Shown: piece after piece, positions 7,803 to 60,990 of the stretch
How the letters are laid out: each line of letters opens with the position of its first letter
Numbering within the stretch: position 1 is the stretch's first letter
From: Acidobacteriota bacterium
GTDB lineage: Bacteria > Acidobacteriota > Aminicenantia > Aminicenantales > Saccharicenantaceae
DNA length: 64,000 nt
Direction of reading: 5' to 3'
NCBI GenBank assembly: GCA_028749205.1
Contig: JAQULR010000001.1
Span: 62,840-126,839, forward strand
Notes under the pieces: model-generated
What the model was told of the DNA's origin: nothing
The model's database searches: none
The model's input: the letters and a program-made list of their open reading frames with translations, nothing else
Program-made: the position numbers and the translations under genes

Positions 7803-7832
7803 TTGACAATTCATTTTCTAATTTAATATACT
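7803..7832 (+). promoter_or_regulatory. Putative sigma70-type promoter of the hydrogenase operon (TTGACA ... TATACT/TAATAT)
   Basis: TTGACA at 7803-7808. -10 candidates are TAATAT at 7824-7829 and TATACT at 7827-7832. The ATG at 7842 lies only ~10 nt downstream and has no Shine-Dalgarno sequence. Confidence 0.35.
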
Positions 7833-7841
7833 CACTTACTC

Positions 7842-9272
7842 ATGAAACCAGAAACCATAACGCTTCTTGTCATTTTCATACCGCTTTTGGGTGCCTTGCT
7901 GGTACCTCTTGCTGGAGCTATCTCTTTTAAGCTGCGGTCTGGCTGGTCTGTATTGGTTGGCGGACTAACAACCTGCTTATCCCTCACGCTGATTCCTCAG
8001 GCCATGAAAGGCGGAGAGATAATCTGGAGCAAGGGGCTGGCGCTGGGTTTGGACTTGGTATTAGTCATCGATCCCCTGTCTATTTTCATGTCGATTATCT
8101 CCTCCTTTATTGGCTTTCTGATCATCGTCTACTCTCTGGGCTACATGCACCACGAAGACCATCAGAATGAATACTATCTGATGGTGACTGTGTTCATCGG
8201 CTCTATGATGGGACTGGTTTTTTCCGGCAACTTAGTTTTCATGTACCTGTTCTGGGAGATGATTGCTATTGCCTGCTGGCGGTTAATAGGTTTTTACCGA
8301 CAAAAAGACTATGTCATTAAAGCCGATAAGGCCTTCCTGGTAACCTTCGGTGGTGCAGTCGTTATGCTTCTGGGCTTCATTCTCATCTATGGGCAAACTG
8401 GAACTTTTAACCTGGTGGATATGAGAGGTGTAGCCATTTCAGGAACGGCTGTTCTCTTGATCTTATTCGGCATGTTCTCCAAATCAGCCACTGTTCCTCT
8501 CCACACCTGGCTACCGGACGCCGGTGTCGCCCCGACAACAGTTACTGCCCTGTTACATGCGGCAGTTCTGGTTAAAATTGGTGTTTATGCCTACGCCCGA
8601 CTTTTTCTTTATACATTCAACATTCCAGCCGATTGGCAACAGGGTATTATTATTCTGGCTGTCCTGTCCAGCTTGATTGCAGCTGGAGCGGCCACGGTGG
8701 AAAACGACTTCAAAAGAATTCTGGCTTACTCTACAGTAAGCCAGATTGGCTACATATTTCTCGGGTTGAGTGTGGCCACCCCTACTGCTATCTCCGGTGC
8801 TTTGCTTTACATTTTGATGCATGGACTGGCCAAGGCTGGTCTGTTTCTTTGTGCCGGGATAGTGATTCATGCTACACACAAAAGAGATATAAGAGAGATG
8901 GGAGGCTTAATAAAGACCATGCCGATTACGGCCATCTCCTTTCTACTGTGCGCCTTTTCAGTCATCGGACTCCCTCCTCTGGGCGGGTTTTTCTCAAAGC
9001 TGTTGGTGATTCTCGGAACGTTACAAGCTGACCAGATCTGGGTAGCGGCTCTGGCTTTGTTCACTGCAGTCTTGACTATGTTTTATTTGCTTCGGGTTTT
9101 CGCCATGGTGTTCCTTGGTGAGCTAAAAACAGCAGCCCCGGAGAAAACACCTTCTATGGTGGGGGTAGTGGCCTCTCTGGCTGTGCTGTCAGTTCTGGCT
9201 GGATTATTAGTCTCGTATCCAATGAAGCTTGTTCAGATGGCCACAACTCATATTAGCTGGTGGTTAAGATGA
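7842..9272 (+). CDS. Antiporter-like subunit (MrpD/NuoN-M family) of the membrane-bound hydrogenase
   Basis: 476 aa and polytopic. Motifs PLHTWLPDAGVAPTTVTALLHAAVLVKIGVY and ILAYSTVSQIGY are typical of NuoL/M/N-MrpA/D proteins. Confidence 0.85.
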   Translation: MKPETITLLVIFIPLLGALLVPLAGAISFKLRSGWSVLVGGLTTCLSLTLIPQAMKGGEIIWSKGLALGLDLVLVIDPLSIFMSIISSFIGFLIIVYSLGYMHHEDHQNEYYLMVTVFIGSMMGLVFSGNLVFMYLFWEMIAIACWRLIGFYRQKDYVIKADKAFLVTFGGAVVMLLGFILIYGQTGTFNLVDMRGVAISGTAVLLILFGMFSKSATVPLHTWLPDAGVAPTTVTALLHAAVLVKIGVYAYARLFLYTFNIPADWQQGIIILAVLSSLIAAGAATVENDFKRILAYSTVSQIGYIFLGLSVATPTAISGALLYILMHGLAKAGLFLCAGIVIHATHKRDIREMGGLIKTMPITAISFLLCAFSVIGLPPLGGFFSKLLVILGTLQADQIWVAALALFTAVLTMFYLLRVFAMVFLGELKTAAPEKTPSMVGVVASLAVLSVLAGLLVSYPMKLVQMATTHISWWLR

Positions 9273-11137
9273 GCTCAACAATTTTGCTATGGACCATTCT
9301 TTTCCCGGCGGTGGTGGCAATTATTCTATTCCTCATTCCTGGCAGAATTAAATTTCTGCGGGAAATCATAGCAGTTTTGGCTTCTGGGGCTCTTTTCTAT
9401 CTGGGTTTTCTACTTTTTTCTCAGAAAAACCTGTCTCTGGTTTCTGACTGGTTAGGAATGGGGATTAATTTTGACCTTCGGCTTTACCATTTTTCAGCCT
9501 TTATCCTGCTGGCCTTAGCTGGTTTTTTATTCCTGATCTGTCTGTATTCTGCAGTTAAAATGCAAAACCATCCTCGAATCCGCGAGTATTATGGGTACCT
9601 CTTCCTCGCAGCCTCGTTCTCCTTCGGAGCAGTGCTGGCCAATAATTTTATTCTGCTGATTTTTTTCTGGGAAGCTCTGCTGATAACCACTTACGCCTTG
9701 ATTACCCTGGGACTGAAGGCCACCTCTCACCGAACTGCTGTTAAGTCGCTGATTATTGGAGGTTTTTGCGATTTTTCCATGATTATGGGCATCGGTCTTC
9801 TCTGGGCTTCTACTGGTACCTTGGCTATGGACAAAATTCAGGTAGAGCCTCATGGCTTAGCCGCGGCAGCTTTTATCCTGATGATGATTGGAGCTATAGG
9901 CAAAGCCGGAGCTATGCCTTTTCATACCTGGATTCCTGATGCCGCCCTTGATGCGCCAGTCAGTTTTATGGCTTTCATGCCAGCTTCATTTGAAAAGCTC
10001 TTAGGAATTTATCTTTTGGCCAGAATTACCCTGGATTTCTTTACCCTAAGAGCAGGCAGCACCCTGGCTATCATCCTAATGATAATTGGGGCCGCCACGA
10101 TTGTCCTGGCTGTTTTCATGGCTCTTATCCAGAAGGATTTTAAGAAGCTGCTGTCTTTCCATGCTGTCAGCCAGGTAGGTTACATGGTACTTGGGATCGG
10201 CACAGCCATCCCCATCGGTATTGCTGGTGGCATCTTCCATATGATTAACCATGCTATGTATAAATGCGGGCTGTTTCTGAGTTCAGGTTCGGTGGAACAC
10301 CGGACTGGAACTACCGAGCTTAAAAAACTCGGCGGTCTGGCCCGGGAAATGCCCTGGACCGCTCTCGGGTTTTCCGTTTGTGCCCTGGCCATTTCTGGTG
10401 TTTGGCCGCTCAACGGTTTTGTTTCTAAAGAAATGGTTTTCCACGGGGCTCTGGAAACTGGCTATCCTATCTTTGCTATAGCTGCCTGGGTGGGGGCTAT
10501 TTTTACCTTTGCTTCTTTTCTCAAAGCTGGTCATTCGGTATTTTTCGGACCTCGTTCTACCGAAATCCCAAAGACTAAAGAGAGTGAAGCTCCTATTGTT
10601 TTACCCATTCTGATTTTAGCAGTCCTGTGTATCACCTTTGGCGTCTATAATAAATTGCCTCTACAAACATTCATCCAGCCTATTTTAGAAGGTAAAGTTG
10701 AGGCTGGAGTGCCTCTGGATTTTACCTCACATGCTTTAGACCTATTCAATCCTGTGGCCGGAGTTTCCATCCTCTGTTTGATTATTGCCCTGGGTCTCCA
10801 CTTTTATGGCTGGAATCGTGGTGGAAGAAAAGCTTATTTAGCTTCAGAACCGATTCATAACCTGCCAGTACTCAGACAACTCTATGATTTATCAGAGGCT
10901 CGCTTTTTTGACCTTTATGAACAGGGCGTGAAATTCTTGCAGTGGCTATCTAAGGTCCTTTTCAGATTCATAGATCGCCCGATTGATTATATTTATGAAA
11001 AAGTCGTGGTATCAATTGGCCGCACCTTCACCGGCCTGCTGCAGAAAGCCCACAACGGCCAGTATGCCAATTATCTGGCCTGGACTATCGGCGGCCTGGT
11101 GGCTGTGGTCTGGATAATACTTGAGTTATTAAAATAG
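9269..11137 (+). CDS. NuoL/MrpA-type antiporter-like subunit with a C-terminal amphipathic extension
   Basis: ~622 aa. Motifs HTWIPDA and LLSFHAVSQVGYM. The long C-terminal helix plus a last TM (..FFDLYEQGVKFLQWLSKVLFRFID..AWTIGGLVAVVWIILELL) resembles a NuoL/MbhH lateral helix. The ATG at 9269 overlaps the upstream stop as ATGA. The track start at 9260 is a GTG. Confidence 0.85.
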   Translation: MSSTILLWTILFPAVVAIILFLIPGRIKFLREIIAVLASGALFYLGFLLFSQKNLSLVSDWLGMGINFDLRLYHFSAFILLALAGFLFLICLYSAVKMQNHPRIREYYGYLFLAASFSFGAVLANNFILLIFFWEALLITTYALITLGLKATSHRTAVKSLIIGGFCDFSMIMGIGLLWASTGTLAMDKIQVEPHGLAAAAFILMMIGAIGKAGAMPFHTWIPDAALDAPVSFMAFMPASFEKLLGIYLLARITLDFFTLRAGSTLAIILMIIGAATIVLAVFMALIQKDFKKLLSFHAVSQVGYMVLGIGTAIPIGIAGGIFHMINHAMYKCGLFLSSGSVEHRTGTTELKKLGGLAREMPWTALGFSVCALAISGVWPLNGFVSKEMVFHGALETGYPIFAIAAWVGAIFTFASFLKAGHSVFFGPRSTEIPKTKESEAPIVLPILILAVLCITFGVYNKLPLQTFIQPILEGKVEAGVPLDFTSHALDLFNPVAGVSILCLIIALGLHFYGWNRGGRKAYLASEPIHNLPVLRQLYDLSEARFFDLYEQGVKFLQWLSKVLFRFIDRPIDYIYEKVVVSIGRTFTGLLQKAHNGQYANYLAWTIGGLVAVVWIILELLK

Positions 11138-11147
11138 AGGAGGAGCG

Positions 11148-12626
11148 GTGGTTTTTTCATTTATTGTTATCCCTTTATTAGTAGCTGCCTTTCTGCCTCT
11201 TATAGGGAAAATCTCCAAAAAATTGCTTCCAGATGTCTTGACCAACGCCGCTCTGGCTTTCCTGTTGTTCAACTCCATCTTGCTGGTCAAGCCAATTTTT
11301 ACTAATGGCTTCATCATTCAGAACCTGAGCTGGTTAGGAGAAAAAGTCAACCTGCAAATAGCTCTTGATGGCTTCAGTTTGTTCATGCTTTTCACTATCT
11401 CACTTGTCAGTCTGTGCGTTAGTTTGTTTTCTATTGATTACTTAGAGCATTATGGGCACAAAGCTAACTTTTACGCCCTATTCCTGGTTATGATCGCCGC
11501 CATGAACGGCTTGGTCCTGGTGCCAGATTTGTTTTCTGTGTATCTGTTTATGGAGGTGGCCGCGGTTGCTTCCTATGCCCTGGTAGCTTTTGGCCTTGGC
11601 TCTGATGAGTTAGAGGCATCTTATAAATATTTAATGCTTTCCGTAGTAGCTTCAGCCTTTGTTCTGCTAAGTATTACTGTCATTTTTGGCCTGACGGGAA
11701 ATCTGAGCTTTCAGGCAGTAGCCCAGGGCCTGCAGGACTTGAATGCTCGGATAGTATTAGGGGTCTGTGTGGCTTTTTTCATCATGGGTTTTGGGCTGAA
11801 GGCTGCTTTAATCCCCTTCCACGCCTGGTTGCCGGATGCTCATCCTTCCGCCCCAGCTCCTATCTCAGCCATGCTGTCAGGTTTACTGATTAAGGTTTCG
11901 GGTATCTATGCTCTGTTCAGAATCCTTTACAGTGTCATCGGTCTGTCGCCAGCTTTATCTCGCCTGTTAATGGCTTTAGGCATAATTTCAGTATTGGTGG
12001 CAGCTCTCCTGGCGCTTGGCCAGAAAGACATAAAACGTATGCTGGCTTATTCTTCCATCAGTCAGGTGGGCTATATTGTTCTCGGGCTGGCTCTGGGCAC
12101 TCCTCTGGGCATTGCTGGAGGCCTATTTCATCTTTTCAATCATGCCACCGCCAAGGGGCTGCTGTTCTTGAACTCCGGTTCTATTCAGCATATCACCGGC
12201 ACCAGGAATTTAGACGAGCTGGGCGGTTTGGGTAAAAAAGTCCCAATCACAAGCGGCACCAATCTGGTCGGGGCTTTATCTATCGCCGGGGTGCCTCCGC
12301 TGGCCGGCTTTTGGAGCAAACTGATTATCATTATTGCCCTTGTCCAGGCTAAGGCATTTGGCTATGCTCTCGTGGCGATTTTAGCTAGCATCTTGACCCT
12401 CTGGTACTATCTGCTGATCCAGAGAAAGGCTTTCTTTGGCCAGGTCAGAGAAAAATGGCAACAGGTCAGAGAAGCACCGTTCTGGATGTCTGCGGCCAAT
12501 ATCATCCTGGCTCTGATCTGTCTTCTGGTGGGCATTTTCTTTACTCCTGTCTACAAGACCTGGATTTCGCCAGCAGCCGAGGCTTTGGCCAGGGGAATTC
12601 ATCAGGTGCTAATGTGGGGGCTATAA
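11148..12626 (+). CDS. Antiporter-like subunit (MrpD/NuoM family)
   Basis: 492 aa. Motifs PFHAWLPDAHPSAPAPISAMLSGLLIKVSGIY and MLAYSSISQVGY. GTG start preceded by AGAGGAGGAG. Confidence 0.85.
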   Translation: MVFSFIVIPLLVAAFLPLIGKISKKLLPDVLTNAALAFLLFNSILLVKPIFTNGFIIQNLSWLGEKVNLQIALDGFSLFMLFTISLVSLCVSLFSIDYLEHYGHKANFYALFLVMIAAMNGLVLVPDLFSVYLFMEVAAVASYALVAFGLGSDELEASYKYLMLSVVASAFVLLSITVIFGLTGNLSFQAVAQGLQDLNARIVLGVCVAFFIMGFGLKAALIPFHAWLPDAHPSAPAPISAMLSGLLIKVSGIYALFRILYSVIGLSPALSRLLMALGIISVLVAALLALGQKDIKRMLAYSSISQVGYIVLGLALGTPLGIAGGLFHLFNHATAKGLLFLNSGSIQHITGTRNLDELGGLGKKVPITSGTNLVGALSIAGVPPLAGFWSKLIIIIALVQAKAFGYALVAILASILTLWYYLLIQRKAFFGQVREKWQQVREAPFWMSAANIILALICLLVGIFFTPVYKTWISPAAEALARGIHQVLMWGL

Positions 12627-12627
12627 A

Positions 12628-13116
12628 ATGGCAATTCAAATAATTTTGCTCTGTGGTTTGATAATCTTTTCCGTTCTGGCCATCTTGCTAAAGGACCTGA
12701 TCAAAGCAGCTCTGTCTTTAGCTGTAGCCAGTTTGTTCCTGGGAATCATTTTCTTTCTATTAGCCGCCCCCTATGCCGGAGTATTTGAAATCTCGGTAGT
12801 AGCCGGGCTCATCACAGTTTTATTCGTCTTGACTATTGCCTTGACCAAAAAAGACGGAGAGGTAAAAGAATCCAGGATAGTGCATCTGGCCTTCCCAATT
12901 TTCTTCATTCTGTTTATCGTTATAGACGGGCTGGTAATGAAATCGCTGCTACAGAAGATTCCAGTTTTACCCATCGGGCCTGAAGCTGGAACCTTTGGAG
13001 AAGTTCTCTGGAAACAGAGAACCTTCGACTTAGTGGCCCAGATTGGGATCATCTTGGCCGGCGTCCTGGCCGTCCTGGCTTTATTCAGGAAAAAGGAAGA
13101 AGATAAAGATGAGTAA
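12628..13116 (+). CDS. Small membrane subunit, MbhD/MbhE (MrpB-like, NuoJ-related) fusion
   Basis: 162 aa with ~4 TM segments. The N-terminal half (..LLAAPYAGVFEISVVAGLITVLFVL) resembles the DUF4040/MbhD-NuoJ core. The assignment rests on pattern and operon position only. Confidence 0.6.
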   Translation: MAIQIILLCGLIIFSVLAILLKDLIKAALSLAVASLFLGIIFFLLAAPYAGVFEISVVAGLITVLFVLTIALTKKDGEVKESRIVHLAFPIFFILFIVIDGLVMKSLLQKIPVLPIGPEAGTFGEVLWKQRTFDLVAQIGIILAGVLAVLALFRKKEEDKDE

Positions 13117-13417
13117 CCTGTGGTTTTTATATTTATTCTTTTCGGCTCTGCTGATTTTTATAGGCATTTACTGCCTTTTGACCATGCGCAACTTGATTAA
13201 ACTGTTCATCGCCATTGAAATCATCAGCAAGGGAGTCAGCCTGGCGATTGTAGCTACAGGCGCGGTGAACAACAATGTCCTGCTAGCCCAGAGCTTAGCT
13301 ATAACCTATATAGTTATAGAGGTCTGCCTGGTGGCCACCGCCCTGGCCTTGATTATAAATATTTATAAAAAGAACAAAAGCCTGGACGTCCGTTTACTTT
13401 CAAAACTGAAGGGATAA
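13109..13417 (+). CDS. MrpC/MnhC (NuoK-like) small membrane subunit
   Basis: ~102 aa with 3 TM segments, starting MSNLWFLYLFFSALLIFIGIYCLLTMRNLIKLFIAIEIISKGV (NuoK/MnhC pattern). ATG at 13109 follows AAGGAAGAAG. The track ORF starts upstream, at 13043. Confidence 0.75.
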   Translation: MSNLWFLYLFFSALLIFIGIYCLLTMRNLIKLFIAIEIISKGVSLAIVATGAVNNNVLLAQSLAITYIVIEVCLVATALALIINIYKKNKSLDVRLLSKLKG

Positions 13418-13420
13418 GCC

Positions 13421-13765
13421 ATGAAAGGATTGGAAATTTTACTATCTCCTCCGGTAGCTTTTATTTTCTTGCTGGTGATTGCCTTTCTGCTCTACCCAAT
13501 CGGGCGGGCTATGGCTCCTAAGCTCAAGAAAACTCCTGGCAAGCTCTCCACTTATGCCTGCGGCGAAGATATTCCCGGAGAGAAGGTTCAGTTTGGCTTT
13601 CGCCTCTTCTACACTTTTGCCTTATTCTTTACGATCATGCATGTAGCAGCCCTGGTAATCGCTACCATTCCCGTTGGGAAAATAGCCTATTTGGGCATTA
13701 TTTATTTGATAATGATATTTCTGGCCATTGCGGCTCTGATAATGAGGAGCGGAAATGCTGACTAA
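13421..13765 (+). CDS. NuoA/MbhI-like small membrane subunit
   Basis: 114 aa. YACGEDIPGEKV followed by FYTFALFFTIMHV resembles the NuoA YECG...F-x-ifd motif. Sits directly upstream of the NuoB-like gene. Confidence 0.6.
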   Translation: MKGLEILLSPPVAFIFLLVIAFLLYPIGRAMAPKLKKTPGKLSTYACGEDIPGEKVQFGFRLFYTFALFFTIMHVAALVIATIPVGKIAYLGIIYLIMIFLAIAALIMRSGNAD

Positions 13766-14186
13766 ACTCACTCACTGGTCGAGGTTGAAATCGCCCTGGA
13801 TCTTACACTTAAACACTGGGGCTTGCAATGCCTGTGACATTGAAGTAGTAGCCGCCCTGACACCCCGTTTTGACGTCGAGCGGTTTGGCATCTTGCTTAA
13901 AGCCACCCCCAGGCATGCTGACGTTATCGTCTGTACTGGCCCGGCTACCCGGCAGATGAAAGACCGGCTGCTCAGGATTTATGAACAGACTCCTGAGCCG
14001 AAGTTTGTCATGGCTGTCGGGGCCTGTGCTATGTCAGGATGTGTTTACCGTGGGGCTTACAATGTTATAGGAGGTATCGACCAGCTCATCCCGGTAGATG
14101 TATATGTCCCAGGTTGTCCAGTCCGCCCTGACGCTGTTATTGACGGGGTGGTCAAACTCCTGAATAAATTGAAGGGAATCGAATAA
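13755..14186 (+). CDS. [NiFe]-hydrogenase small subunit, NuoB-like (proximal 4Fe-4S)
   Basis: 143 aa. Cys ligands GACNACDIE, GACAMSG and VPGCPVRP, as in MbhJ/EchC/NuoB. Confidence 0.9.
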   Translation: MLTKLTHWSRLKSPWILHLNTGACNACDIEVVAALTPRFDVERFGILLKATPRHADVIVCTGPATRQMKDRLLRIYEQTPEPKFVMAVGACAMSGCVYRGAYNVIGGIDQLIPVDVYVPGCPVRPDAVIDGVVKLLNKLKGIE

Positions 14187-14187
14187 A

Positions 14188-14661
14188 ATGAATGATCAGT
14201 TTTTGATTGATAAAGCCCGAGAAAACCTTAAAGAGAAAATAGTAGAAATAACCAATCCGGCCCGGCGGCGGATTTTTCTTGAAGTAGGAATAGACGATCT
14301 CCTGGCCTCAGTTAGCTGGCTTAAAAATGACCTGGGCTTTACTCATCTTTCAACCATAAGTGGAGTAGATTTGGGAGAGACCTTTGAGGTTATCTATCAT
14401 TTTGCGAATAACTATTGCTGTTTAAATATCAGGGTAAAAATTCCCCGAGATAATCCTCTGCTGCCCAGCATCTGTGAATTAATCCCGGGTGCCATTCTCT
14501 ACGAACGTGAGATAAAAGAGATGTTTGGCTTGACTGTTCAGAACATACCGGACGGGAGACCACTCCTCCTGCCCGATGACTGGCCGGCTGGCAATTATCC
14601 TTTGCGCAAAGACTGGAAGTATGAAAGGCCGCCTGAAGTCATCCCCGGAGGTGAAAAATGA
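14188..14661 (+). CDS. NuoC-like hydrogenase subunit (MbhK/EchD-type)
   Basis: 157 aa. The motif YEREIKEMFGL..PDGRPLLLPDDWP is typical of the NuoC/30-kDa family. Confidence 0.85.
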   Translation: MNDQFLIDKARENLKEKIVEITNPARRRIFLEVGIDDLLASVSWLKNDLGFTHLSTISGVDLGETFEVIYHFANNYCCLNIRVKIPRDNPLLPSICELIPGAILYEREIKEMFGLTVQNIPDGRPLLLPDDWPAGNYPLRKDWKYERPPEVIPGGEK

Positions 14662-15860
14662 ATTTTCAGATTCCCATCGGTCCGCAACACCCAGCCTTAA
14701 AAGAACCTATCGGTCTTCGGATAACTGTTGAGGGCGAAATTATTCGAGACGCTGATATTCGCCTTGGTTACAACCACCGGGGAATTGAAAAACTGGCCGA
14801 GCAAAAGACCTGGATTCAGAACGTCTATCTAACCGAGCGTATCTGCGGGATTTGCTCTCATTCTCACACCACCTGCTATGTTCAGGGTGTAGAAAAGTTA
14901 ATGGAGCTGGAAACACCTAAGCGCGGCCTTTATATCAGGATGCTGATCTCTGAGCTGGAGAGAATCCACAGCCATCTTCTGTGGCTGGGTGTGGCCGGAC
15001 ACGAAGCCGGTTTTGATAGTTTCTTCATGTATGTCTGGCGGGACCGGGAGATTGTTATGGATATCCTGGAGACTATTTCCGGCAATCGCGTCCACTATGC
15101 TATCAATACGATTGGGGGCGTTCGGCGCGACTTGGACGAGTTGCAGGTGAAACGGATTCTGGATTCCCTGGAGGTATTAAGAAGGCGTAGCCAATATTAT
15201 CTGAATCTTGGCACTACTGAACCCAGCTTTGTAGCCAGGCTGGCGAGAGTTGGCTACCTCTCCAGGGAAGATGCTCTGTCCCTTTGTGCCGTTGGTCCGA
15301 CATTAAGGGCTTCTGGCGTTCCCATGGATGTCCGCAAAGACGACCCTTATGCTGCCTATGATGAAGTGCCTTTTGAAGTTTGCACCGCTGGCACCTGCGA
15401 TGTCCTGGGCCGGACTGTAGTTCGAATCAAAGAATTATTTCAGAGCTATAACATTATAGAATATTTAATGAAAAATCTCCCGACTGGGCCGATTGCTGTC
15501 CGAGCTCCCAGGAGAGCCAAGCCCAATGAAGTAGTCAGCCGTTACGAAGCTCCCCGAGGCGAGAACCTTCACTACATCAAAAGCAATGGCTCTGACAAAC
15601 CCGAAAGGCTAAAAGTCCGGGCCCCAACTCTAGGCAATTATGCAGCTACTATCAAGATGCTTAAGAATGGCTTTATAGCCGATGTCCCTCTGATTTTTGC
15701 TGCTATTGACCCCTGTATCTGCTGCGCTGAACGGGCCGTGGCCTTAATTGATGCTCGGACAGGTCAGGAAAAAATAATGTCTTTAAAGAGCTTGAAAGAA
15801 CTGAGTCTAAAAGTCTCACCTACCACTACCAGAAAGAGGGAAATAGAATGGCCACTGTAA
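14658..15860 (+). CDS. Group 4 [NiFe]-hydrogenase large (catalytic) subunit, NuoD-like
   Basis: 400 aa. The N-terminal L1 motif RICGICSHSH (aa 61-70) and C-terminal L2 motif DPCICCAER (aa 351-359) are both intact, followed by a 41-aa tail. Confidence 0.9.
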   Translation: MNFQIPIGPQHPALKEPIGLRITVEGEIIRDADIRLGYNHRGIEKLAEQKTWIQNVYLTERICGICSHSHTTCYVQGVEKLMELETPKRGLYIRMLISELERIHSHLLWLGVAGHEAGFDSFFMYVWRDREIVMDILETISGNRVHYAINTIGGVRRDLDELQVKRILDSLEVLRRRSQYYLNLGTTEPSFVARLARVGYLSREDALSLCAVGPTLRASGVPMDVRKDDPYAAYDEVPFEVCTAGTCDVLGRTVVRIKELFQSYNIIEYLMKNLPTGPIAVRAPRRAKPNEVVSRYEAPRGENLHYIKSNGSDKPERLKVRAPTLGNYAATIKMLKNGFIADVPLIFAAIDPCICCAERAVALIDARTGQEKIMSLKSLKELSLKVSPTTTRKREIEWPL

Positions 15861-16819
15861 ACACTCTGATTTATCTAATTATCTATCCTGGTCTTCTGTT
15901 CATCTTTCTTTACTCAACTTTTGTTGAATGGTATGATAGGAAGCTCTATGCTCGCCTTCAAAACCGAATGGGGCCAACGCACACTGGTCCGTCAGGGTTG
16001 TTGCAACCTATAGCTGATTTCTTTAAGTTAATGGCTAAAGAAGACATCACCCCAGAGCGGGCTGATAAAACCATGTTTGCGGCTTTACCTCCTTTCGGTT
16101 TGGCCATTGTCTCAACCGCCATGCTGCTCCTCCCTGTCTGGAACTACAGCCTTGAACAATCTTCTCTGACCTCTTTTAATGGGGATATTATTGTCCTGCT
16201 ATATCTGCTTAGCTTACCGACTTTTATTTTCTTCCTGGCCGGTTGGTCATCCACTAACCTGTTCTCTACCATCGGAGGAGCCAGGGTGTTGACCATGTTG
16301 TTTGGTTATGAAGTGCCGCTCTTTCTGGCTGTTCTGAGCCCGGCAGTTCTGGCAGATTCCTGGCGCCTGGCTGAAATCGCTGCCTTTTACCGACAGCAGC
16401 CGGCCTTAGCTCTGGTAAATCTTTTAGGATTTATTATTGCCCTGATTTGTGTGCAGGCTAAACTGGAGAGGACTCCTTTTGACATTCCCCATGCCGAAAC
16501 TGAAATAGTCGGCGGAACTTTTACTGAATATTCCGGCAAGAAATTGGCAGTGTTCCGTCTAATGCTGGATGTGGAGATGGTGGTAGCCGCCGGTCTTATT
16601 GCCACTGTTTTCTTAGGCGGTTTCCCCGGAGGACCGATCCTCGGTTTGATTAATTTTATTATTAAAACCCTGTTAGTGGTTTTCTTCCTGTCATTAATTC
16701 GGGCAACAACTTCCAGGATCAGGGTAGATCAAGTAGTCAGCTTTGCCTGGAAATATTTAGCTCCGCTGGCGGTCCTCCAGCTTCTAATCGTAATTATTGT
16801 TAAGGGGTTGATCTCATGA
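15848..16819 (+). CDS. NuoH/HycD/MbhM-like integral membrane subunit
   Basis: 323 aa. The N-terminus ...EWYDRKLYARLQNRMGPTHTGPSGLLQPIADFFKL is the NuoH-family signature. Confidence 0.9.
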   Translation: MATVNTLIYLIIYPGLLFIFLYSTFVEWYDRKLYARLQNRMGPTHTGPSGLLQPIADFFKLMAKEDITPERADKTMFAALPPFGLAIVSTAMLLLPVWNYSLEQSSLTSFNGDIIVLLYLLSLPTFIFFLAGWSSTNLFSTIGGARVLTMLFGYEVPLFLAVLSPAVLADSWRLAEIAAFYRQQPALALVNLLGFIIALICVQAKLERTPFDIPHAETEIVGGTFTEYSGKKLAVFRLMLDVEMVVAAGLIATVFLGGFPGGPILGLINFIIKTLLVVFFLSLIRATTSRIRVDQVVSFAWKYLAPLAVLQLLIVIIVKGLIS

Positions 16820-17211
16820 AGATAGGGGTTTTTATCCCAGAACTTATCAGACATCTTTTTAGGACACCTGCAACTGTAGACTATCCCTTTAAGAAGCTAG
16901 AAGTTCCGAAGAGTTTCCGGGGCTCCCCCTATCTACAACCTGAACTATGCATCGTTTGCCGGGCCTGTGAGCGCGACTGCCCGGCTGAAGCCATAGAAAT
17001 CAACACAGTTAAAGAGGAAGAAAAAATTTTTAGCTTGGTTATCTATAATGACCGGTGTATTCATTGTGCCCAGTGTGTGGATTCCTGTCCCACTAAAGCA
17101 ATGCAGATGGATGAGAAATTTGAAATTTCCAACTTCAACCGTCATAACCTTAAAATGGATTGGGAATTTGTCCGGGCAGCGGTCAAACCCAAAGCTGAAA
17201 ATAAAAGCTGA
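16816..17211 (+). CDS. NuoI/MbhN-like 2x[4Fe-4S] ferredoxin subunit
   Basis: 131 aa with two CxxCxxCxxxCP motifs (CIVCRACERDCP, CIHCAQCVDSCP). Confidence 0.9.
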   Translation: MKIGVFIPELIRHLFRTPATVDYPFKKLEVPKSFRGSPYLQPELCIVCRACERDCPAEAIEINTVKEEEKIFSLVIYNDRCIHCAQCVDSCPTKAMQMDEKFEISNFNRHNLKMDWEFVRAAVKPKAENKS

Positions 17212-17256
17212 TACTTAGCACCAATTAAAACGCATCAGCACTGTCGCTAATGGGGG

Positions 17257-17276
17257 CTATTAATAAATAATCCAGG
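17257..17276. repeat. Member D of the dispersed intergenic motif family (CTATTAATAAATAATCCAGG)
   Basis: Contains the 11-mer AATAATCCAGG, identical to 24307-24317. 17 of 20 positions match site A. Lies between the convergent hydrogenase-operon and dnaN 3' ends. Confidence 0.4.
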
Positions 17277-17305
17277 TCAAGTTATTGAACGCCTCAGATG
17301 ATTTC

Positions 17306-18412
17306 TCAAATTTTCATAGGCATCAGGACATATAGATAGACCCCTTGAGGTGCTTCCTCTGGTTTTATTAAAACAGCACTATTTTCGTCTTTAATTTCCA
17401 AGACGACTCTCTCGGAACTGACAGTTCCTAAAAAGTCTAAAAGATATTGAGAGTTGAAGCCAATTTCCAGATCTTGACCCTGATAGTCCACGATAACTTT
17501 ATCCCTGGCCTCACCAAACTCAGGGTTATATGAAAACAGTCTCAGTTCTCCTGCTTTGAGATCAAATTTCACTCCCTTTGACTTTTCAGAGGATAGAATA
17601 GATACTCTCTTTATAGCCGCTGTTAACTCCTCTTTATTGATTGATAAAACATTAGGATTATCCTTCGGAATAACAGCTTGATAATTGGGAAACTTGCTCT
17701 CTATCACCCGAGAAATTAGGACTCTATTTTTGACTCTAAAAAAAAGACTGTTATCATCAAAATCAAAGTCAAGATTGCCATCATCATATTTCTTCAGCTC
17801 ATTAAGTGTCTTTTTAGAGATAATTTGATTGATTTCATTTTCTATTCTTAGCCCGTCTATTTCCCTCTTAGTATAAGAAAGTCTGTGACCATCGGTACTG
17901 ACTAATTCTATCTGGTTATCCTTCAATGATAATAAGGCTCCATTCAGATAATAACGCTGTTCCTGGGTAATAGCATAGATAACGCAGTCTATCATCTCCT
18001 GAAAGACAGACACCGTCCAAGAAATATTTCTATCAAACCCCGCATCCTGAATGGCCGGAAAATCTTCTTCAGGAGCAGCCAGAATTTTAATCTCACTATC
18101 ACCAGACCTGACAATTAGATGTTCTTCTTTTTTAATGAAATCTATGGCCTGTTCTTCTGATAGTAGTTTTACAAAGTCAAATAATTTCTTCCCATTAACT
18201 GCAGCCTGACCATTTTCTTTAACTTCTGCTTCAAAGAAGGTTTTTAATCCAACTTCTAAGTCAGTTCCCATCACCTCAACTCTGCCCTTCGAGGCTTTAA
18301 TCAGGACATTAGATAAGATGGGCATGGTAGTCCTTTTTTCCACAATTCCTTGAAGTAGGCCCAATTCGTTAATAATCTTACTTTTAGTAGCCGAAAATCT
18401 CATTTTTTCCAC
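17306..18412 (-). CDS. dnaN: DNA polymerase III beta sliding clamp
   Basis: 368 aa, directly downstream of dnaA. The C-terminus LMPMKI is typical of DnaN. Confidence 0.95.
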   Translation of the reverse strand: MEKMRFSATKSKIINELGLLQGIVEKRTTMPILSNVLIKASKGRVEVMGTDLEVGLKTFFEAEVKENGQAAVNGKKLFDFVKLLSEEQAIDFIKKEEHLIVRSGDSEIKILAAPEEDFPAIQDAGFDRNISWTVSVFQEMIDCVIYAITQEQRYYLNGALLSLKDNQIELVSTDGHRLSYTKREIDGLRIENEINQIISKKTLNELKKYDDGNLDFDFDDNSLFFRVKNRVLISRVIESKFPNYQAVIPKDNPNVLSINKEELTAAIKRVSILSSEKSKGVKFDLKAGELRLFSYNPEFGEARDKVIVDYQGQDLEIGFNSQYLLDFLGTVSSERVVLEIKDENSAVLIKPEEAPQGVYLYVLMPMKI

Positions 18413-18521
18413 CTTTCTTTAAGGACATTTAATATAATTATAAATCATAAATTAGTAATAAAAACAATATAAGAATGTCGATTGAATATGTGTATCCTAT
18501 TAGCTATCTTTTTATTTCTAA

Positions 18522-19853
18522 TCATTTTAAGAGATCAGTCAAGTTGTTAATATCTTTGTTAAAATCAGGGTTAGAAGCTCTTAATTTTTCAATTTTTCTA
18601 ATACTATGTAAAACAGTCGTGTGGTGCTTTCCGCCAAATTTTTTACCAATTTCAGGGAGAGAACTATTGGTTAGTTCCTTAGCAAGGTACATAGCGACTT
18701 GCCTGGGGAAGGAAAATTTTGGCGAATTATTTCTAGATTTTAGTTCTGATGGTTTGATTTTATAATAGTTGCAGACTACTTTTTGTATTTTTTCTACAGT
18801 TATAACATTGGCTGAAGCATCAAGGAGGCCTTTCAGGGCTTCTATGGCCAGGTCGAGGTCAATTTTTGTGCCCTTAAGTGAAGCGAAGGCTATCACCCTT
18901 CTTAGATAGCCTTCGAGCTCACGAATGTTGGAATGAACTTTATCAGCGATATATAAAGCTACTGGTTCGGGCAAAACAATATCTTCCATCTCAGCTTTTT
19001 TCTTTAGGATGGCAATTCTAGTCTCAATATCTGGTGGCCTCAAGTCAGCGATTAATCCCCACTCAAACCGGGAGCGAAAGCGATCTTCTAAATGAGGTAT
19101 ATCCCTCGGAGGACAATCACTGGAAATGACGATCTGCTTCTGGCTATCATATAGGTGGTTGAAAGTGTGGAAAAACTCTTCTTTGGTCCTTTCGCGACCT
19201 GAAAGATAATGGATGTCGTCCATCAATAAGACATCTATAGCTCGGTATTTTTGCCGGAATTCTAAAACCTTTCCATACTGTAGGTGATTAATCAACTCGT
19301 TCATAAAGCGTTCCGTGGTTACATATAACACTTTTGAATGGGTGTTATTATGCATTATTTGGTGTCCGATGGCATTCATCAAATGGGTTTTGCCAAGCCC
19401 GGCACCACCATAGATATAAAGAGGGTTGTAAGACTTGGCTGGATTCTTGGCTACAGCCAGAGCCGCGGCGTGGGCAAATTGATTGCATAATCCTACTACG
19501 AAGTTTTCAAAAGTATAGTTAGGATTAAGACTGGCGGTTTGCAGAACCCTTTGGTGGAGTTTTCTCTCCTCAGGAGAGTTACGTAAAAAAGGAGTTGGGG
19601 ATTCATCATATATGAATTTTATATCGAAGATTCTATTGAATATTTCCTGACTACACTCGTTGATTATGTTGGAATAATGAAAGGTCAGCCAATCCTTAAA
19701 ATAAGAATTAGGCACTTTAATATATAGAGTTTCTCCTTCTTCCCCAATATAAGAGGTAGGTTCAAACCAGGTGTCAAAGGCTTGTTCCTCAACGCGGTTT
19801 TTGATTCCAGTCAGGATCTTATTCCAAGGATTAGATTTATCAGCTATTTTCAT
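18522..19853 (-). CDS. dnaA: Chromosomal replication initiator DnaA
   Basis: Walker A GGAGLGKTHL, a box VII/sensor region, and a C-terminal DNA-binding domain (..GGKHHTTVLHSIRKIE). I prefer the ATG at 19853 (MKIADKSNPWNKIL...) because the track's GTG at 19886 lies inside the DnaA-box cluster. Confidence 0.95.
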   Translation of the reverse strand: MKIADKSNPWNKILTGIKNRVEEQAFDTWFEPTSYIGEEGETLYIKVPNSYFKDWLTFHYSNIINECSQEIFNRIFDIKFIYDESPTPFLRNSPEERKLHQRVLQTASLNPNYTFENFVVGLCNQFAHAAALAVAKNPAKSYNPLYIYGGAGLGKTHLMNAIGHQIMHNNTHSKVLYVTTERFMNELINHLQYGKVLEFRQKYRAIDVLLMDDIHYLSGRERTKEEFFHTFNHLYDSQKQIVISSDCPPRDIPHLEDRFRSRFEWGLIADLRPPDIETRIAILKKKAEMEDIVLPEPVALYIADKVHSNIRELEGYLRRVIAFASLKGTKIDLDLAIEALKGLLDASANVITVEKIQKVVCNYYKIKPSELKSRNNSPKFSFPRQVAMYLAKELTNSSLPEIGKKFGGKHHTTVLHSIRKIEKLRASNPDFNKDINNLTDLLK

Positions 19854-19866
19854 ATTGCCCCAAAAG

Positions 19867-19898
19867 ATATCCACAGAAATATCCACAACTGTGGAAAA
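19867..19898. promoter_or_regulatory. Cluster of three DnaA-box-like 9-mers
   Basis: ATATCCACA at 19867-19875, ATATCCACA at 19879-19887, and TGTGGAAAA (reverse complement TTTTCCACA) at 19890-19898. Each matches the TTATCCACA consensus at 8 of 9 or 7 of 9 positions. Boxes 2 and 3 form an inverted pair. Confidence 0.6.
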
Positions 19899-38661: not shown

Positions 38662-38693
38662 CGGTATTATTATGTGTCTTAATCCAGGTTAAC
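38657..38693. repeat. Member C of the dispersed motif; an imperfect hairpin that fills the gap between the ispF and pstB stop codons
   Basis: Sequence GTTGACGGTATTATTATGTGTCTTAATCCAGGTTAAC. It shares ATTATT..TGTG..AATCCAGrTTAAC with site B (63326-63361). The outer arms GTTGAC/GTTAAC can pair. Confidence 0.45.
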
Positions 38694-39453
38694 TGATTTC
38701 TCCCGTAATGTAAGCCCGGGTCCTGGGGTCTTTGGGAGATACCAGGACTTCAGAAGCCGGCCCGAATTCTATTACCTCACCAAGATATAGGAAAGCTACA
38801 TAATCGGCCAGCCGCCTGGCCTGGCGCAGAATATGGGTTACCAGAATGATTGTATAATTCTGCTTTAAGCTTAGAAGCTGTGTTTCCACGTTGCGGCTGG
38901 ATTGAGGGTCAAGAGCAGAGGTTGGTTCATCGCCCAGGATGACTTCTGGTTCAATGGCCAGTCCTCGAGCCAGGCATAATCGTTGTTGTTGGCCAATAGA
39001 CAGGCTCCCGGCCGGGTCCGAGAGCCGGTTTTTTACTTCCTCCCATAGACCGGCCAGCTGTAAGTATTTTTCTACTAGCTTATCCAAAGCAGCGCGAGAT
39101 CTTAAACCGAGCAACCTGGGTCCAAAGGCCACGTTATCATAAATAGACATGGGTAAAACCTGAGGTTTCTGGGAGAGCAGGCCCATCTTCTTTCTGACCT
39201 GAGTTACATCTATTCCGAATTGATAGATATCCTGGCCGTCAACCAGAACCTGGCCTTCAACCCGGGCTTCATCCTGCTCGTCCAAAAGCCGGTTCAGACT
39301 TTTGAGCAAGGTGGTTTTCCCGCAACCAGACGGTCCGATAATAACCGTTATTCTTTTTTCTGGGATTTGTAAATTGATGTCTTTCAGGACATGATTTTTC
39401 CCGAAGTAAACATTAAGATTTTTAATCTGTAAACTGCTCGGCCTGTCCATCAC
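38689..39453 (-). CDS. pstB: Phosphate ABC transporter ATPase PstB (operon 1)
   Basis: Walker A GPSGCGKTT, LSIGQQQRLCLARG, ILGDEPTSALD, and a PstB-like DNVAFGPRL motif. Confidence 0.9.
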   Translation of the reverse strand: MMDRPSSLQIKNLNVYFGKNHVLKDINLQIPEKRITVIIGPSGCGKTTLLKSLNRLLDEQDEARVEGQVLVDGQDIYQFGIDVTQVRKKMGLLSQKPQVLPMSIYDNVAFGPRLLGLRSRAALDKLVEKYLQLAGLWEEVKNRLSDPAGSLSIGQQQRLCLARGLAIEPEVILGDEPTSALDPQSSRNVETQLLSLKQNYTIILVTHILRQARRLADYVAFLYLGEVIEFGPASEVLVSPKDPRTRAYITGEIS

Positions 39454-39463
39454 TTAGCTCCAG

Positions 39464-40351
39464 TTAAAGGATTTTATGGCGGCTCAGCCTCCGGCTAAGA
39501 CTGCGAGAAATGAGGCTTATTAACAAAATAAGCAAGGTTAGAATAGCCGCGGAAGCATAGGCCCGTTGCTGAACTTCAGGAAAAGGCGAATTCAGCTGAA
39601 AAAATATAGCTAGGGGCAAGGTGGCCACTGGTTGCAGAAAAGAAGTGGTAATTCTATCAGTATAGCCAGCCGTAAAAAGAACGGAGGCCGCATCTCCTAA
39701 ACCCCGACCCATGGCCATCAAAACTCCGGTAACCAGTCCAGGGATAGCCTGTCTCAGCATCACCTTAGTAGTCGTTTGCCAGCGGTTAGCTCCCAGGGAA
39801 AGGGTGGTTTCTTTGAGTTCTACCGGAACCAGCCTTAAGGTCTCATCCAGGGATCGACTCAGGATAGGTAGTTCTACCATAGCGACGGTAATTATCCCAG
39901 CCAGCAGAGAGGCCCGTAATTGTAGGGCTATCATGATCAGAAAACCGAAAGCTCCGTAGACGATGGATGGGATTCCCCACAGGACATCAAGAGAAAACCT
40001 GATGATTTCAGCGGTGGTCGATTTTTTTTTCAAATAGCTTTGCAAGAAAATGACTGCCGGGAGAGCAATCGTTAGGGCCAGAAGAGTGGCTCCCAATATA
40101 AGTTGTAAAGAACCCAGAATGGCATTCAAAATCCCCCCTTCCTCTCCCAGATAATAGCCACTGCTGGGGGTTTTAATAATCATAGAAATTTGGAGAGCCG
40201 GCAAACTTTTCCAGAGTATGGTTATCAGAATCAAAACCAGACTTAACAATACCAGAGCAGCCGAAGCTACCATTAATATTTTAAAAAATGATTCTTTTCT
40301 CTTCCTTCTTTTTAGGTTCGGGCTAAGCTTATTGTAACTCTGACCTTTCAT
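39464..40351 (-). CDS. pstA: Phosphate ABC transporter permease PstA (operon 1)
   Basis: 295 aa, 6 TM segments, EAA-type loop (ETTLSLGANRWQTTTKVMLRQAIPG). Assignment also uses gene order. Confidence 0.85.
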   Translation of the reverse strand: MKGQSYNKLSPNLKRRKRKESFFKILMVASAALVLLSLVLILITILWKSLPALQISMIIKTPSSGYYLGEEGGILNAILGSLQLILGATLLALTIALPAVIFLQSYLKKKSTTAEIIRFSLDVLWGIPSIVYGAFGFLIMIALQLRASLLAGIITVAMVELPILSRSLDETLRLVPVELKETTLSLGANRWQTTTKVMLRQAIPGLVTGVLMAMGRGLGDAASVLFTAGYTDRITTSFLQPVATLPLAIFFQLNSPFPEVQQRAYASAAILTLLILLISLISRSLSRRLSRHKIL

Positions 40352-42329: not shown

Positions 42330-42364
42330 GTTTTCTGCCTTCCTTAAAGAGATGAATTCTATTT

Positions 42365-60966: not shown

Positions 60967-60990
60967 TTTCTGGCTACTTTCACTCAGAAA

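Follow-up and report, generated by a model that had tools for sequence, protein, structure and literature searches.

An eleven-gene operon of an Acidobacteriota bacterium probably codes for a membrane-bound [NiFe] hydrogenase with the subunit set of the complex I core

A 64,000-nucleotide (nt) stretch of an Acidobacteriota bacterium genome (assembly GCA_028749205.1, contig JAQULR010000001.1, positions 62,840 to 126,839), hereafter called the window, carries an operon of eleven genes at its positions 7842 to 17211. The operon probably encodes an eleven-subunit, membrane-bound, energy-converting [NiFe] hydrogenase, loosely of the HydDB 4g kind, that would be the bacterial counterpart of archaeal Hfo. 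Hfo is an Fpo/Nuo-like, 11-subunit [NiFe] hydrogenase from Bathyarchaeia, classified by HydDB in 4g and termed 'subgroup 4g-6' (Loh, Herve and Brune 2021, PMC7886697). The complex-I-core hydrogenase design was already published for archaea in 2021, and the operon in the window is a bacterial example of it. What the locus apparently adds is a widespread bacterial version with a permuted gene order, a fused J subunit, a lateral helix on a different paralogue, and complex-I-like H and A subunits.

The eleven open reading frames (ORFs) lie tightly packed head to tail on the plus strand and comprise, as listed, 476, 625, 492, 162, 124, 114, 143, 157, 400, 323 and 131 residues. Their junctions are overlaps of 4 to 13 nt or gaps of 1 to 10 nt, in agreement with the original prediction, which had described eleven packed ORFs with junctions of at most 13 nt. 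The gene order is N-L-M-J-K-A-B-C-D-H-I, in which the N, L and M labels are nominal. Taking the Pfam gathering score as the family cut-off, all eleven products exceed that of their family. Pfam and the profile searches together provide a family-level counterpart for each of the 11 core subunits of complex I, as had been proposed. At the level of NCBIfam, none of the antiporter-like, A, C, D, H or J subunits attained an equivalog cut-off; the only models passed were two generic ones of the NuoB family (NF005012 and TIGR01957) and a NuoK equivalog, at 59 bits (cut-off 57). Because those equivalog cut-offs are not reached, the names NuoD, NuoL and the like, which the NCBI and JGI pipelines often give to the subunits, are family-level labels.

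The peripheral arm carries the signatures of a hydrogenase. The operon encodes together the subunit set of group 4: a NuoB-like small subunit with one cluster, a NuoI-like subunit with two [4Fe-4S] clusters (two CxxCxxCxxxCP motifs), a NuoC-like subunit and a NuoH-like subunit. The NuoC-like subunit (157 residues) and the large subunit (400 residues) are separately encoded. The large subunit, a NuoD homolog, harbors an L1 motif, RICGICSHSH, at residues 61 to 70 and an L2 motif, DPCICCAER, at residues 351 to 359, so that both of the Ni-Fe CxxC motifs attributed to it earlier are confirmed. It also has the conserved Glu16 and a C-terminal extension beyond the L2 motif. Residues C63, C66, C353, C356 and R359 are invariant in 18 diverse homologues and in every large subunit examined from related loci. 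The group 4 motifs have been defined as C[GS][ILV]C[AGNS]xxH for L1 and [DE][PL]Cx[AGST]Cx[DE][RL] for L2 (PMC7886697). The L1 sequence observed here (CGICSHSH) matches this pattern, as do the cysteines, the D-P and the E-R of L2. The residue preceding the second L2 cysteine is a cysteine here, as against A, G, S or T in the pattern, and S, A or G in relatives. Among reference proteins, the large subunit scores 284 bits against MbhL (41% identity), 282 against HycE, 206 against Nqo4 and 175 against MbsL. In the alignment, the quinone-ligand positions of Nqo4 (Tyr87 and His38) correspond to Gly64 and Lys15. The cluster ligands of the small subunit are of the hydrogenase type, with CxxC (CNAC), then GACAMSG, then PGCP, as in HycG and HyfI, and the aligned protein is devoid of the tandem CC of NuoB. 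According to blastp, the B, C, D and I subunits match Hyc/Hyf about as well as anything else. These features support assignment to the group-4-type membrane [NiFe] hydrogenases, as far as sequence can tell.

The H and A subunits lean the other way. The H subunit scores 291 bits against Pfam NADHdh/NuoH. Among solved structures, it matches the complex I subunits Nqo8 (170 bits), NdhA (145) and NuoH (138) better than the hydrogenase-type MbhM (93), HycD (69) and MbsM (66). Against the E. coli proteins it scores 144 bits with NuoH, 86 with HycD and 74 with HyfC; for comparison, E. coli NuoH itself scores 64 bits with HycD and 54 with HyfC. The alignment further reveals a longer loop between transmembrane (TM) segments 1 and 2, and the motifs WSSxN and R..R.DQV.SF.WK, all shared with NuoH. 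The A subunit passes Pfam Oxidored_q4/NuoA with 26.1 bits (cut-off 23.3). Across 34 aligned A subunits of related loci, Y-x-x-G is invariant within the YACGE(D/E) loop motif, which reads YACGED here. The profile built from these sequences matches about 25 NuoA/ND3/NdhC chains (best E 5.7e-7), and MbhI only marginally (E 0.42). The H and A subunits are thus, by these sequence comparisons, closer to complex I than to their counterparts in Mbh or formate hydrogenlyase (FHL). The complex as a whole appears to be of mixed affinity, with hydrogenase-like peripheral subunits and a complex-I-like H subunit. In TM2 of the A subunit, an 'HV' is conserved in the bacterial clade, where NuoA/ND3 have the functionally important 'DVE' and the archaeal relatives 'DV'.

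The J subunit matches both Oxidored_q3/NuoJ (41.1 bits, cut-off 33.2) and MbhD (30.8 bits, cut-off 27.2) in Pfam. A profile of 28 J subunits found MbsD (E 2.5e-13) and MbhD (E 2.4e-12) through its first 80 residues, E. coli NuoJ (E 6.7e-7) across 111 residues, and faint C-terminal matches to MbsE/MbhE. Because the N-terminal matches are to MbhD/MbsD, the faint C-terminal ones to MbhE/MbsE and the overall ones to NuoJ, J is predicted to be a fusion of MbhD and MbhE, equivalent to NuoJ. The K subunit scores 70.8 bits against Pfam Oxidored_q2/NuoK, and, among PDB sequences, 52.5 bits against MbhG and 38 against Nqo11. The profile searches thus bear out the reading of the small membrane subunits as NuoA, NuoJ and NuoK counterparts.

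The membrane arm comprises three antiporter-like subunits (ORF1 to ORF3), with Pfam Proton_antipo_M scores of 248, 183 and 229 bits, respectively. All three keep the TM5 glutamate and the TM7, TM8 and TM12 lysines: Glu139, Lys214, Lys245 and Lys386 in ORF1, Glu138, Lys215, Lys246 and Lys390 in ORF2 (625-residue numbering), and Glu136, Lys218, Lys249 and Lys391 in ORF3. ORF1 has a NuoL/HyfD-type core, made of Proton_antipo_N (the ND5 N-terminal domain) and Proton_antipo_M, without a C-terminal tail. Its best NCBIfam matches are NuoL (329 bits) and HyfD (309 bits), and blastp gives 213 bits for HyfD and 201 for NuoL. ORF2 can be aligned over its full length with NuoL models and likewise with the NuoL of M. 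smegmatis (residues 13 to 618). By hydropathy, a TM segment is followed by an amphipathic stretch, at about 530 to 595, and a last TM segment. The AlphaFold model has a long helix at 549 to 592 followed by a terminal helix at 599 to 621; with a mean predicted local distance difference test (pLDDT) score of 72.8, and about 50 to 68 in the tail, it is supportive but not conclusive. The top full-length fold matches found with Foldseek are NuoL/ND5/NdhF and MrpA, with TM-scores of 0.66 to 0.73. The alignment, hydropathy, model and fold matches agree with the tail noted originally, and support its interpretation as a predicted lateral helix of the NuoL/MrpA/MbsH' kind followed by a final TM helix.

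The assignment of the three proteins one by one to NuoN, NuoL and NuoM, which was part of the same prediction, does not stand. In a neighbour-joining (NJ) tree without support values, ORF1 groups with NuoL, HyfD and the 684-residue subunit of an archaeal relative, the tail-bearing ORF2 forms a separate group, and ORF3 lies near NuoN/HyfF. ORF3 also groups with the first-encoded antiporter of the archaeal cluster (the first M of J-K-M-N-M) and with the antiporter whose gene immediately precedes that of A in the Caldisericota and Longilinea variants described below. Judged from these sequences, the three antiporter-like subunits are not in one-to-one correspondence with NuoL, NuoM and NuoN, and the labels are not statements of orthology.

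The large-subunit and DnaA sequences of the window are identical to those of an Acidobacteriota metagenome-assembled genome (MAG; MDD8030439.1 and MDD8030443.1). The 90%-identity cluster of the large subunit consists mostly of Candidatus Saccharicenans, and the exact sequence occurs on 11 contigs. The public record of the ortholog from Ca. S. subterraneus bears the name 'Group 4 [NiFe] hydrogenase large subunit'. The best 120 homologues are 74 to 89% identical and come from Aminicenantes wherever they are named, and the nearest outside representatives among the 50%-identity clusters are about 53% identical. A genome scan with one genome per species revealed at least 600 related loci. We fetched 80 of these and mapped the eleven proteins of the window onto them. 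The order N-L-M-J-K-A-B-C-D-H-I, referred to below as canonical, was found in 44 of the 80. The 44 loci belong to Aminicenantes and, at 51 to 60% large-subunit identity, to Omnitrophota (55 to 59%), Elusimicrobiota and Planctomycetota, to many Bacillota, Spirochaetota and Myxococcota, and likewise to further Acidobacteriota, to Coriobacteriia and to a few MAGs with unreliable-looking labels. A ten-gene variant, J-K-N-M-A-B-C-D-H-I, occurs in Chloroflexota, including Longilinea arvoryzae, and in Methanoregula, and Caldisericota have J-K-N-M-M-A-B-C-D-H-I. A locus from Bathyarchaeia (L050, 5015-14740) is arranged as A-B-C-D-H-I-J-K-M-N-M, which is the nuo/fpo order.

A profile made from 22 large subunits from outside the Aminicenantes matched at least 7,996 further 90%-identity clusters at E <= 1e-50. 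The best 120 of these matches are all MAG or metagenome proteins, and neither among them nor among the 80 fetched loci was a cultivated or characterised carrier of the canonical operon found. The sole isolate in the genome scan is Longilinea arvoryzae KOME-1, which has the ten-gene variant. In an NJ tree of large subunits, computed without bootstrap values and without 4b, 4c, 4e, 4f, 4h, 4i and published 4g-6 references, the canonical-order bacteria form one clade beside, and not inside, the Bathyarchaeia clade, and MbhL and HycE/HyfG are placed elsewhere, apart from the canonical-order clade.

Further arrangements were observed among the fetched loci. Three more archaeal loci (L059, L064 and L068) have the nuo/fpo order or split arrangements, with J present as short ORFs of about 71 to 87 residues, two of them adjacent in L059; together with L050, they match the published Hfo architecture. 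Three loci from Dehalococcoidales/Bathyarchaeia contain the B, C, D and I genes only, at approximately 9048-11541 in L027, 9074-11499 in L042 and 9084-11530 in L074. Their large subunits are up to 59% identical and keep the NiFe cysteines, and no membrane subunit genes were present within 10 kb. They may represent a soluble or separately anchored version of the module.

The likeliest activity of the enzyme would be ferredoxin-dependent H2 evolution, or the reverse, coupled to translocation of H+ or Na+. The gene set, family assignments, metal-ligand motifs and transport residues are observed, as are the spread of the operon over phyla and its proximity to hydrogenase maturation genes in relatives; the donor, direction, ion and stoichiometry are what we infer. 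Formate dehydrogenase, carbon monoxide dehydrogenase (CODH), NuoEFG and hyp genes were all absent among the ORFs of at least 120 residues across the 64 kb window. This agrees with the earlier statement that no input module is encoded nearby and that ferredoxin coupling is the simplest reading. Among the 44 canonical loci, no conserved input module lies next to the operon, and no formate dehydrogenase or CODH gene is conserved; a soluble donor such as ferredoxin is suggested for this reason. Reduced ferredoxin, produced for example by pyruvate:ferredoxin oxidoreductase in a fermenter, would dock on the NuoI-like subunit. Electrons would then pass through the two [4Fe-4S] clusters of this subunit to the single cluster of the NuoB-like small subunit. 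From there they would move on to the [NiFe] site in the NuoD-like large subunit and reduce protons to H2. The redox reaction at the NuoH-like interface would be relayed via A, J and K to the three antiporter-like subunits, as in Mbh and complex I, with the lateral helix of ORF2 clamping the membrane arm. The outcome would be export of H+ and/or Na+ by a reversible enzyme.

Judged from standard redox potentials, transfer of electrons from reduced ferredoxin to H2 yields roughly 0 to 20 kJ per H2 under standard conditions, and perhaps 20 to 40 kJ at low H2 pressure. Because this driving force is small, one or two ions would be moved per H2, and not four as in complex I. Several points weigh against the assignment as a bacterial Hfo-like, energy-converting hydrogenase. 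Three apparently competent antiporter modules are hard to square with the small free energy of the ferredoxin-to-H2 reaction. The window is devoid of hyp and HycI-like protease genes. The placement beside the Bathyarchaeia clade comes from the tree with the limits given above. Finally, the 4g enzymes, Hfo included, have been described from genomes and not biochemically (PMC7886697, PMC5037454). As for the first of these points, three intact modules would imply a low or variable stoichiometry, an internal exchange of Na+ for H+ of the sort proposed for Mbh, or operation in reverse, in which a larger number of ions per H2 favours the reduction of ferredoxin.

The last option corresponds to the same complex working in the opposite direction, with H2 uptake and a membrane potential that drives ferredoxin reduction, as proposed for Hfo. 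The authors of the Hfo study favour this direction in acetogenic Bathyarchaeia (Bathy-6) (PMC7886697). Energy-converting hydrogenases are reversible, and three ion modules would lower the potential barrier in reverse electron flow driven by the proton-motive force. We nevertheless regard uptake as unlikely in this host, since Aminicenantes have been described as fermentative H2 producers (PMC10766756) and no hint of an autotrophic pathway that would consume ferredoxin is seen in the window, although direction as such cannot be read from sequence.

The lack of maturation genes raises the question of whether the operon is decaying. Close relatives, with 86 to 88% large-subunit identity, carry a gene for a 167-residue HycI-like maturation endopeptidase between the I gene and dnaN (L001 12537-13147 and L003 9562-10065; also in L002). 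This gene is absent from the corresponding spacer here, where about 500 nt are missing compared with L001 to L003, and no copy is present elsewhere in the 64 kb. The operon might thus have begun to decay in this genome after loss of the linked protease gene. Such a course appears very improbable, since all eleven ORFs are intact and 74 to 89% identical to their orthologs, the exact large-subunit sequence occurs on those 11 contigs, and 24 of the 44 canonical loci likewise lack an adjacent protease gene, which may be encoded elsewhere in the genome. In the other 20, the I gene is followed immediately by the gene of a HycI-like endopeptidase, with E 4e-15 against E. coli HycI. Putative hypE- and hypF-like ORFs, recognised by eye and not by family search, lie beside the operon in four loci each, some of them Bacillota. 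Because hyp and HycI-like genes are absent from the window, maturation must rely on genes elsewhere in the genome. The invariance of the active site at about 50% large-subunit identity, together with the HycI-like gene and the putative hyp-like ORFs of relatives, argues for a working hydrogenase. The large subunit here keeps its C-terminal extension despite the missing HycI-like gene.

The only other recurrent neighbour in the 44 loci is a pyrophosphatase-like ORF. Identified by eye as of the membrane-bound type (about 780 residues), it stands beside the operon in seven loci (L016, L021, L022, L026, L030, L035 and L037) from Planctomycetota, Omnitrophota, Spirochaetota and others. A functional link between two ion pumps is possible.

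The conservation of the active site also bears on whether the complex is an 11-subunit complex I/Fpo-like ferredoxin:quinone oxidoreductase in which the hydrogenase motifs are vestigial. The eleven subunit types are the same, the H and A subunits stand closer to complex I than do their Mbh or FHL counterparts, and pipelines use the names NuoD and NuoL. Against this, the four Ni-Fe cysteines, R359 and Glu16 are invariant even though the large subunits are only about 50% identical. Gly and Lys stand at the positions of the Nqo4 quinone ligands Tyr87 and His38, the small subunit contains CxxC and not CC, and relatives carry the HycI-like protease gene and the putative hypE/hypF-like ORFs beside the operon. 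We therefore consider a quinone reductase extremely improbable. An MBS-like enzyme that reduces sulfur or polysulfide, or a complex of the Ehr type with another substrate, is hardly credible at all: the pair of ORF2 and ORF3 resembles MbsH'/MbsH and J resembles MbsD, but the Ni-binding residues that are lost in Ehr (PMC6349859) are conserved here, and the large subunit scores far lower against MbsL than against MbhL.

With the eleven-subunit hydrogenase as the preferred reading, a bolder version of it can be put forward, tentatively and as a whole. The canonical-order bacterial clade, which spans well over ten phyla and whose large subunits form more than 7,900 clusters at 90% identity, might be a distinct and very widespread lineage that has not yet been recognised as complex-I-like. 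No hydrogenase of solved structure has NuoH- and NuoA-like subunits as similar to complex I as those of this clade, which could for this reason be the nearest relative of complex I among bacterial hydrogenases. Three apparently competent ion modules, driven by a reaction whose energy covers only one or two ions, might then point to an unusual coupling, with built-in Na+/H+ exchange or variable stoichiometry.

The features of the operon are listed in Table 1. The start of ORF2 is probably the ATG at 9269 (622 residues) and not the GTG at 9260 (625 residues), in line with all public annotations of ORF2 orthologs. The K gene most likely begins with the ATG at 13106, which yields 103 rather than 124 residues. 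The promoter-like site upstream of ORF1 is a consensus match only, and shuffled sequence yields about 1.2 such sites per region. No Shine-Dalgarno sequence was found between this sigma-70-like site and the ORF1 ATG; for this reason the operon mRNA may be leaderless, unless the promoter match is due to chance.

Table 1. Predicted features of the hydrogenase operon, in coordinates of the window.
Feature	Position	Strand	Basis
Promoter-like site, TTGACA-18 nt-TATACT	7803..7832	+	11/12 consensus matches; ends 9 nt before ORF1 ATG
ORF1, antiporter-like subunit, 476 aa	7842..9272	+	Pfam, NCBIfam, blastp, key residues, NJ tree
ORF2, antiporter-like subunit with predicted lateral helix, 622 aa	9269..11137	+	Pfam, NCBIfam, hydropathy, AlphaFold, Foldseek
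ORF3, MrpD/NuoN/HyfB-F-type antiporter-like subunit, 492 aa	11148..12626	+	Pfam, NCBIfam, blastp, key residues, NJ tree
J subunit, 162 aa	12628..13116	+	Pfam Oxidored_q3 and MbhD, PDB sequence matches, profile search
K subunit, NuoK/MrpC/MbhG type, 103 aa	13106..13417	+	Pfam Oxidored_q2, PDB matches
A subunit, NuoA/ND3 type, 114 aa	13421..13765	+	Pfam Oxidored_q4, PDB matches, family alignment, profile search
NuoB-like small subunit, 143 aa	13755..14186	+	Pfam Oxidored_q6, NCBIfam, blastp, alignment with NuoB/HycG/HyfI
NuoC-like subunit, 157 aa	14188..14661	+	Pfam Complex1_30kDa, NCBIfam, blastp
NuoD-like [NiFe] large subunit, 400 aa	14658..15860	+	Pfam Complex1_49kDa and NiFeSe_Hases, motifs
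NuoH-like membrane subunit, 323 aa	15848..16819	+	Pfam NADHdh, PDB matches, alignment
NuoI-like ferredoxin-type subunit, 131 aa	16816..17211	+	Pfam, two CxxCxxCxxxCP motifs
Spacer before dnaN (minus strand), 94 nt	17212..17305		Site of HycI-like protease gene in close relatives

The flanks of the operon are unrelated to it, with polA and a GNAT gene upstream, and dnaN, dnaA and relA/spoT downstream. The dnaN and dnaA genes (17306-19886, minus strand) follow the operon directly, as they do in L001, L002, L003, L006 and L011. In this lineage the hydrogenase operon therefore adjoins dnaA-dnaN, which are often markers of a replication origin; near the operon, cumulative GC skew stays level, and it does not climb until about 26 kb. 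Farther away, and unrelated, the minus strand carries two phosphate-type ABC transporter clusters (38689-43821 and 58395-61926), each with a PBP_like_2 protein, two permeases and an ATPase; the first additionally contains a phosphate-selective porin and an Rrf2 regulator.

The presumed ancestor of complex I is a [NiFe] hydrogenase of the membrane-bound kind. Enzymes with the full eleven-subunit core that still make or use H2 are natural test cases for the origin of quinone reduction and of four-proton pumping. Such an enzyme is not confined to a few archaea but appears as standard equipment of many uncultured anaerobic bacteria, and the breadth of the operon suggests that H2 flux in sediments, aquifers and digesters probably depends in part on it. 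To the evolutionary question, the locus adds breadth and details but no new concept.

Among known systems, Mbh of Pyrococcus furiosus (HydDB 4d; PDB 6CFW) shares with the predicted enzyme ferredoxin-dependent H2 evolution and a membrane arm that translocates ions. In gene order, the block J-like, K-like, ..., A-like, B, C, D, H, I is similar to mbhD/E, G, ..., I, J-N. Of the large subunits with solved structures, MbhL is one of the closest, the N-terminus of J resembles MbhD, and K resembles MbhG. Mbh has a single antiporter-like subunit plus MbhA-C/F (MrpEFG-like), whereas the operon in the window has three and nothing MrpEFG-like. MbhD and MbhE are separate proteins but fused in J, the H subunit scores lower with MbhM than with Nqo8 (93 against 170 bits), and A matches NuoA/ND3 and not MbhI. 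Membership in Mbh/4d was rejected on the absence of MrpEFG-type ORFs in or beside the operon, the three antiporter-like subunits and the position outside the MbhL clade.

E. coli Hyf (hydrogenase 4, or formate hydrogenlyase-2; HydDB 4a) also has three antiporter-like subunits, with a pattern like that of the window: HyfD, with a NuoL core of about 480 residues, the long HyfB (672 residues) and a third. Hyc (FHL-1; PDB 7Z0S) and Hyf differ in having a fused NuoC-NuoD, an extra HycB/HyfA ferredoxin and a formate dehydrogenase partner, whereas in the window C and D have a gene each, and A, J and K are individual proteins of the NuoA/J/K kind. No NuoA counterpart was found among the Hyf proteins compared, and HyfE weakly matches K but not J. 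Membership in Hyc/Hyf (4a) was rejected on the separate C and D genes, the absence of HycB-like and FdhF-like genes from the window and the position outside the HycE/HyfG clade.

The 11-subunit complex I and Fpo-like enzymes (Moparthi and Hagerhall 2011, PMC3144371), including photosynthetic NDH-1, have the same eleven families, no NADH module and a likely ferredoxin donor, and they resemble the predicted enzyme in the H and A subunits and the lateral helix. They reduce quinone or methanophenazine, have lost the NiFe cysteines and possess a tandem-Cys NuoB, whereas the operon in the window keeps the hydrogenase signatures. The retained NiFe cysteines, Gly64 and Lys15 in place of Tyr87 and His38, and the CNAC of the small subunit led us to reject a quinone-reducing complex I. 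MBS was rejected on the conserved Ni ligands and the MbsL score of 175 bits as against 284 for MbhL; MBS and Mbx are not known to have Ni-coordinating residues. Ehr complexes lack them as well (PMC6349859), and the retained Ni-Fe coordinating residues led to the rejection of this family too.

The composition of the operon had been described as unlike that of known relatives. This holds with respect to Mbh, Ech, Hyc/Hyf and Ehr but not Hfo, whose eleven subunits are of the same types: A, B, C, D, H, I, J and K, together with three antiporter-like ones. Hfo thus provides an already described group 4 subgroup with the 11-subunit architecture, albeit in another gene order, and the claim of novelty falls away in substance. 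The Hfo D subunit is classified as 4g and keeps the L1 and L2 motifs, similar clusters occur in Ca. Methanomethylicus and Pyrodictium, and the authors proposed that Hfo closes the gap between hydrogenases and complex I (PMC7886697). As in the window, Hfo has neither an MrpEFG-type Na+ module nor a NuoEFG/FpoF input module. In L050, which has the Hfo architecture, the large subunit is about 56% identical and all eleven subunits match those of the window. The differences lie in the host, bacterial here and archaeal for Hfo, and in the gene order, which for Hfo is the nuo/fpo order A-B-C-D-H-I-J-K-L-M-N. J is a single protein of 162 residues in the window but split into ORFs of about 71 to 87 residues in the archaeal loci. 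The lateral-helix tail is on ORF2, with the NuoL-type core protein ORF1 tailless, whereas the long subunit of the archaeal loci is a NuoL-type protein of 684 to 687 residues that presumably bears the tail. The A-subunit TM2 motif is 'HV' here and 'DV' in the archaeal forms and NuoA.

HydDB 4g is a loosely clustered, uncharacterised and putatively ferredoxin-coupled group (PMC5037454). Kinship with this loosely defined group is suggested by the identity of about 56% to the Hfo-type locus and by the Omnitrophota loci with the same gene order. Relatives from Omnitrophota and Cloacimonadota have been labelled 'group 4g Mbh linked to Mrp' (PMC8542988), and those from Elusimicrobia and Saganbacteria 'Mbh-Mrp type' (PMC6349859, bioRxiv 765248). 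The literature on Aminicenantes hydrogenases contains generic mentions of 'group 4' only, a literature search for 'Fpo-like hydrogenase' returned Loh et al. only, and in the literature searched we found no paper that notes the full eleven-subunit complex I core in bacterial 4g enzymes. Group 4j-4q [NiFe] hydrogenases 'architecturally resembling Complex I' have been reported from Asgard archaea in a 2024 preprint (Appler et al., 10.1101/2024.07.04.601786). By their description, they resemble the predicted enzyme in their retained NiFe site, NuoBCDI peripheral arm, proposed ferredoxin donor and complex-I-like membrane arm.

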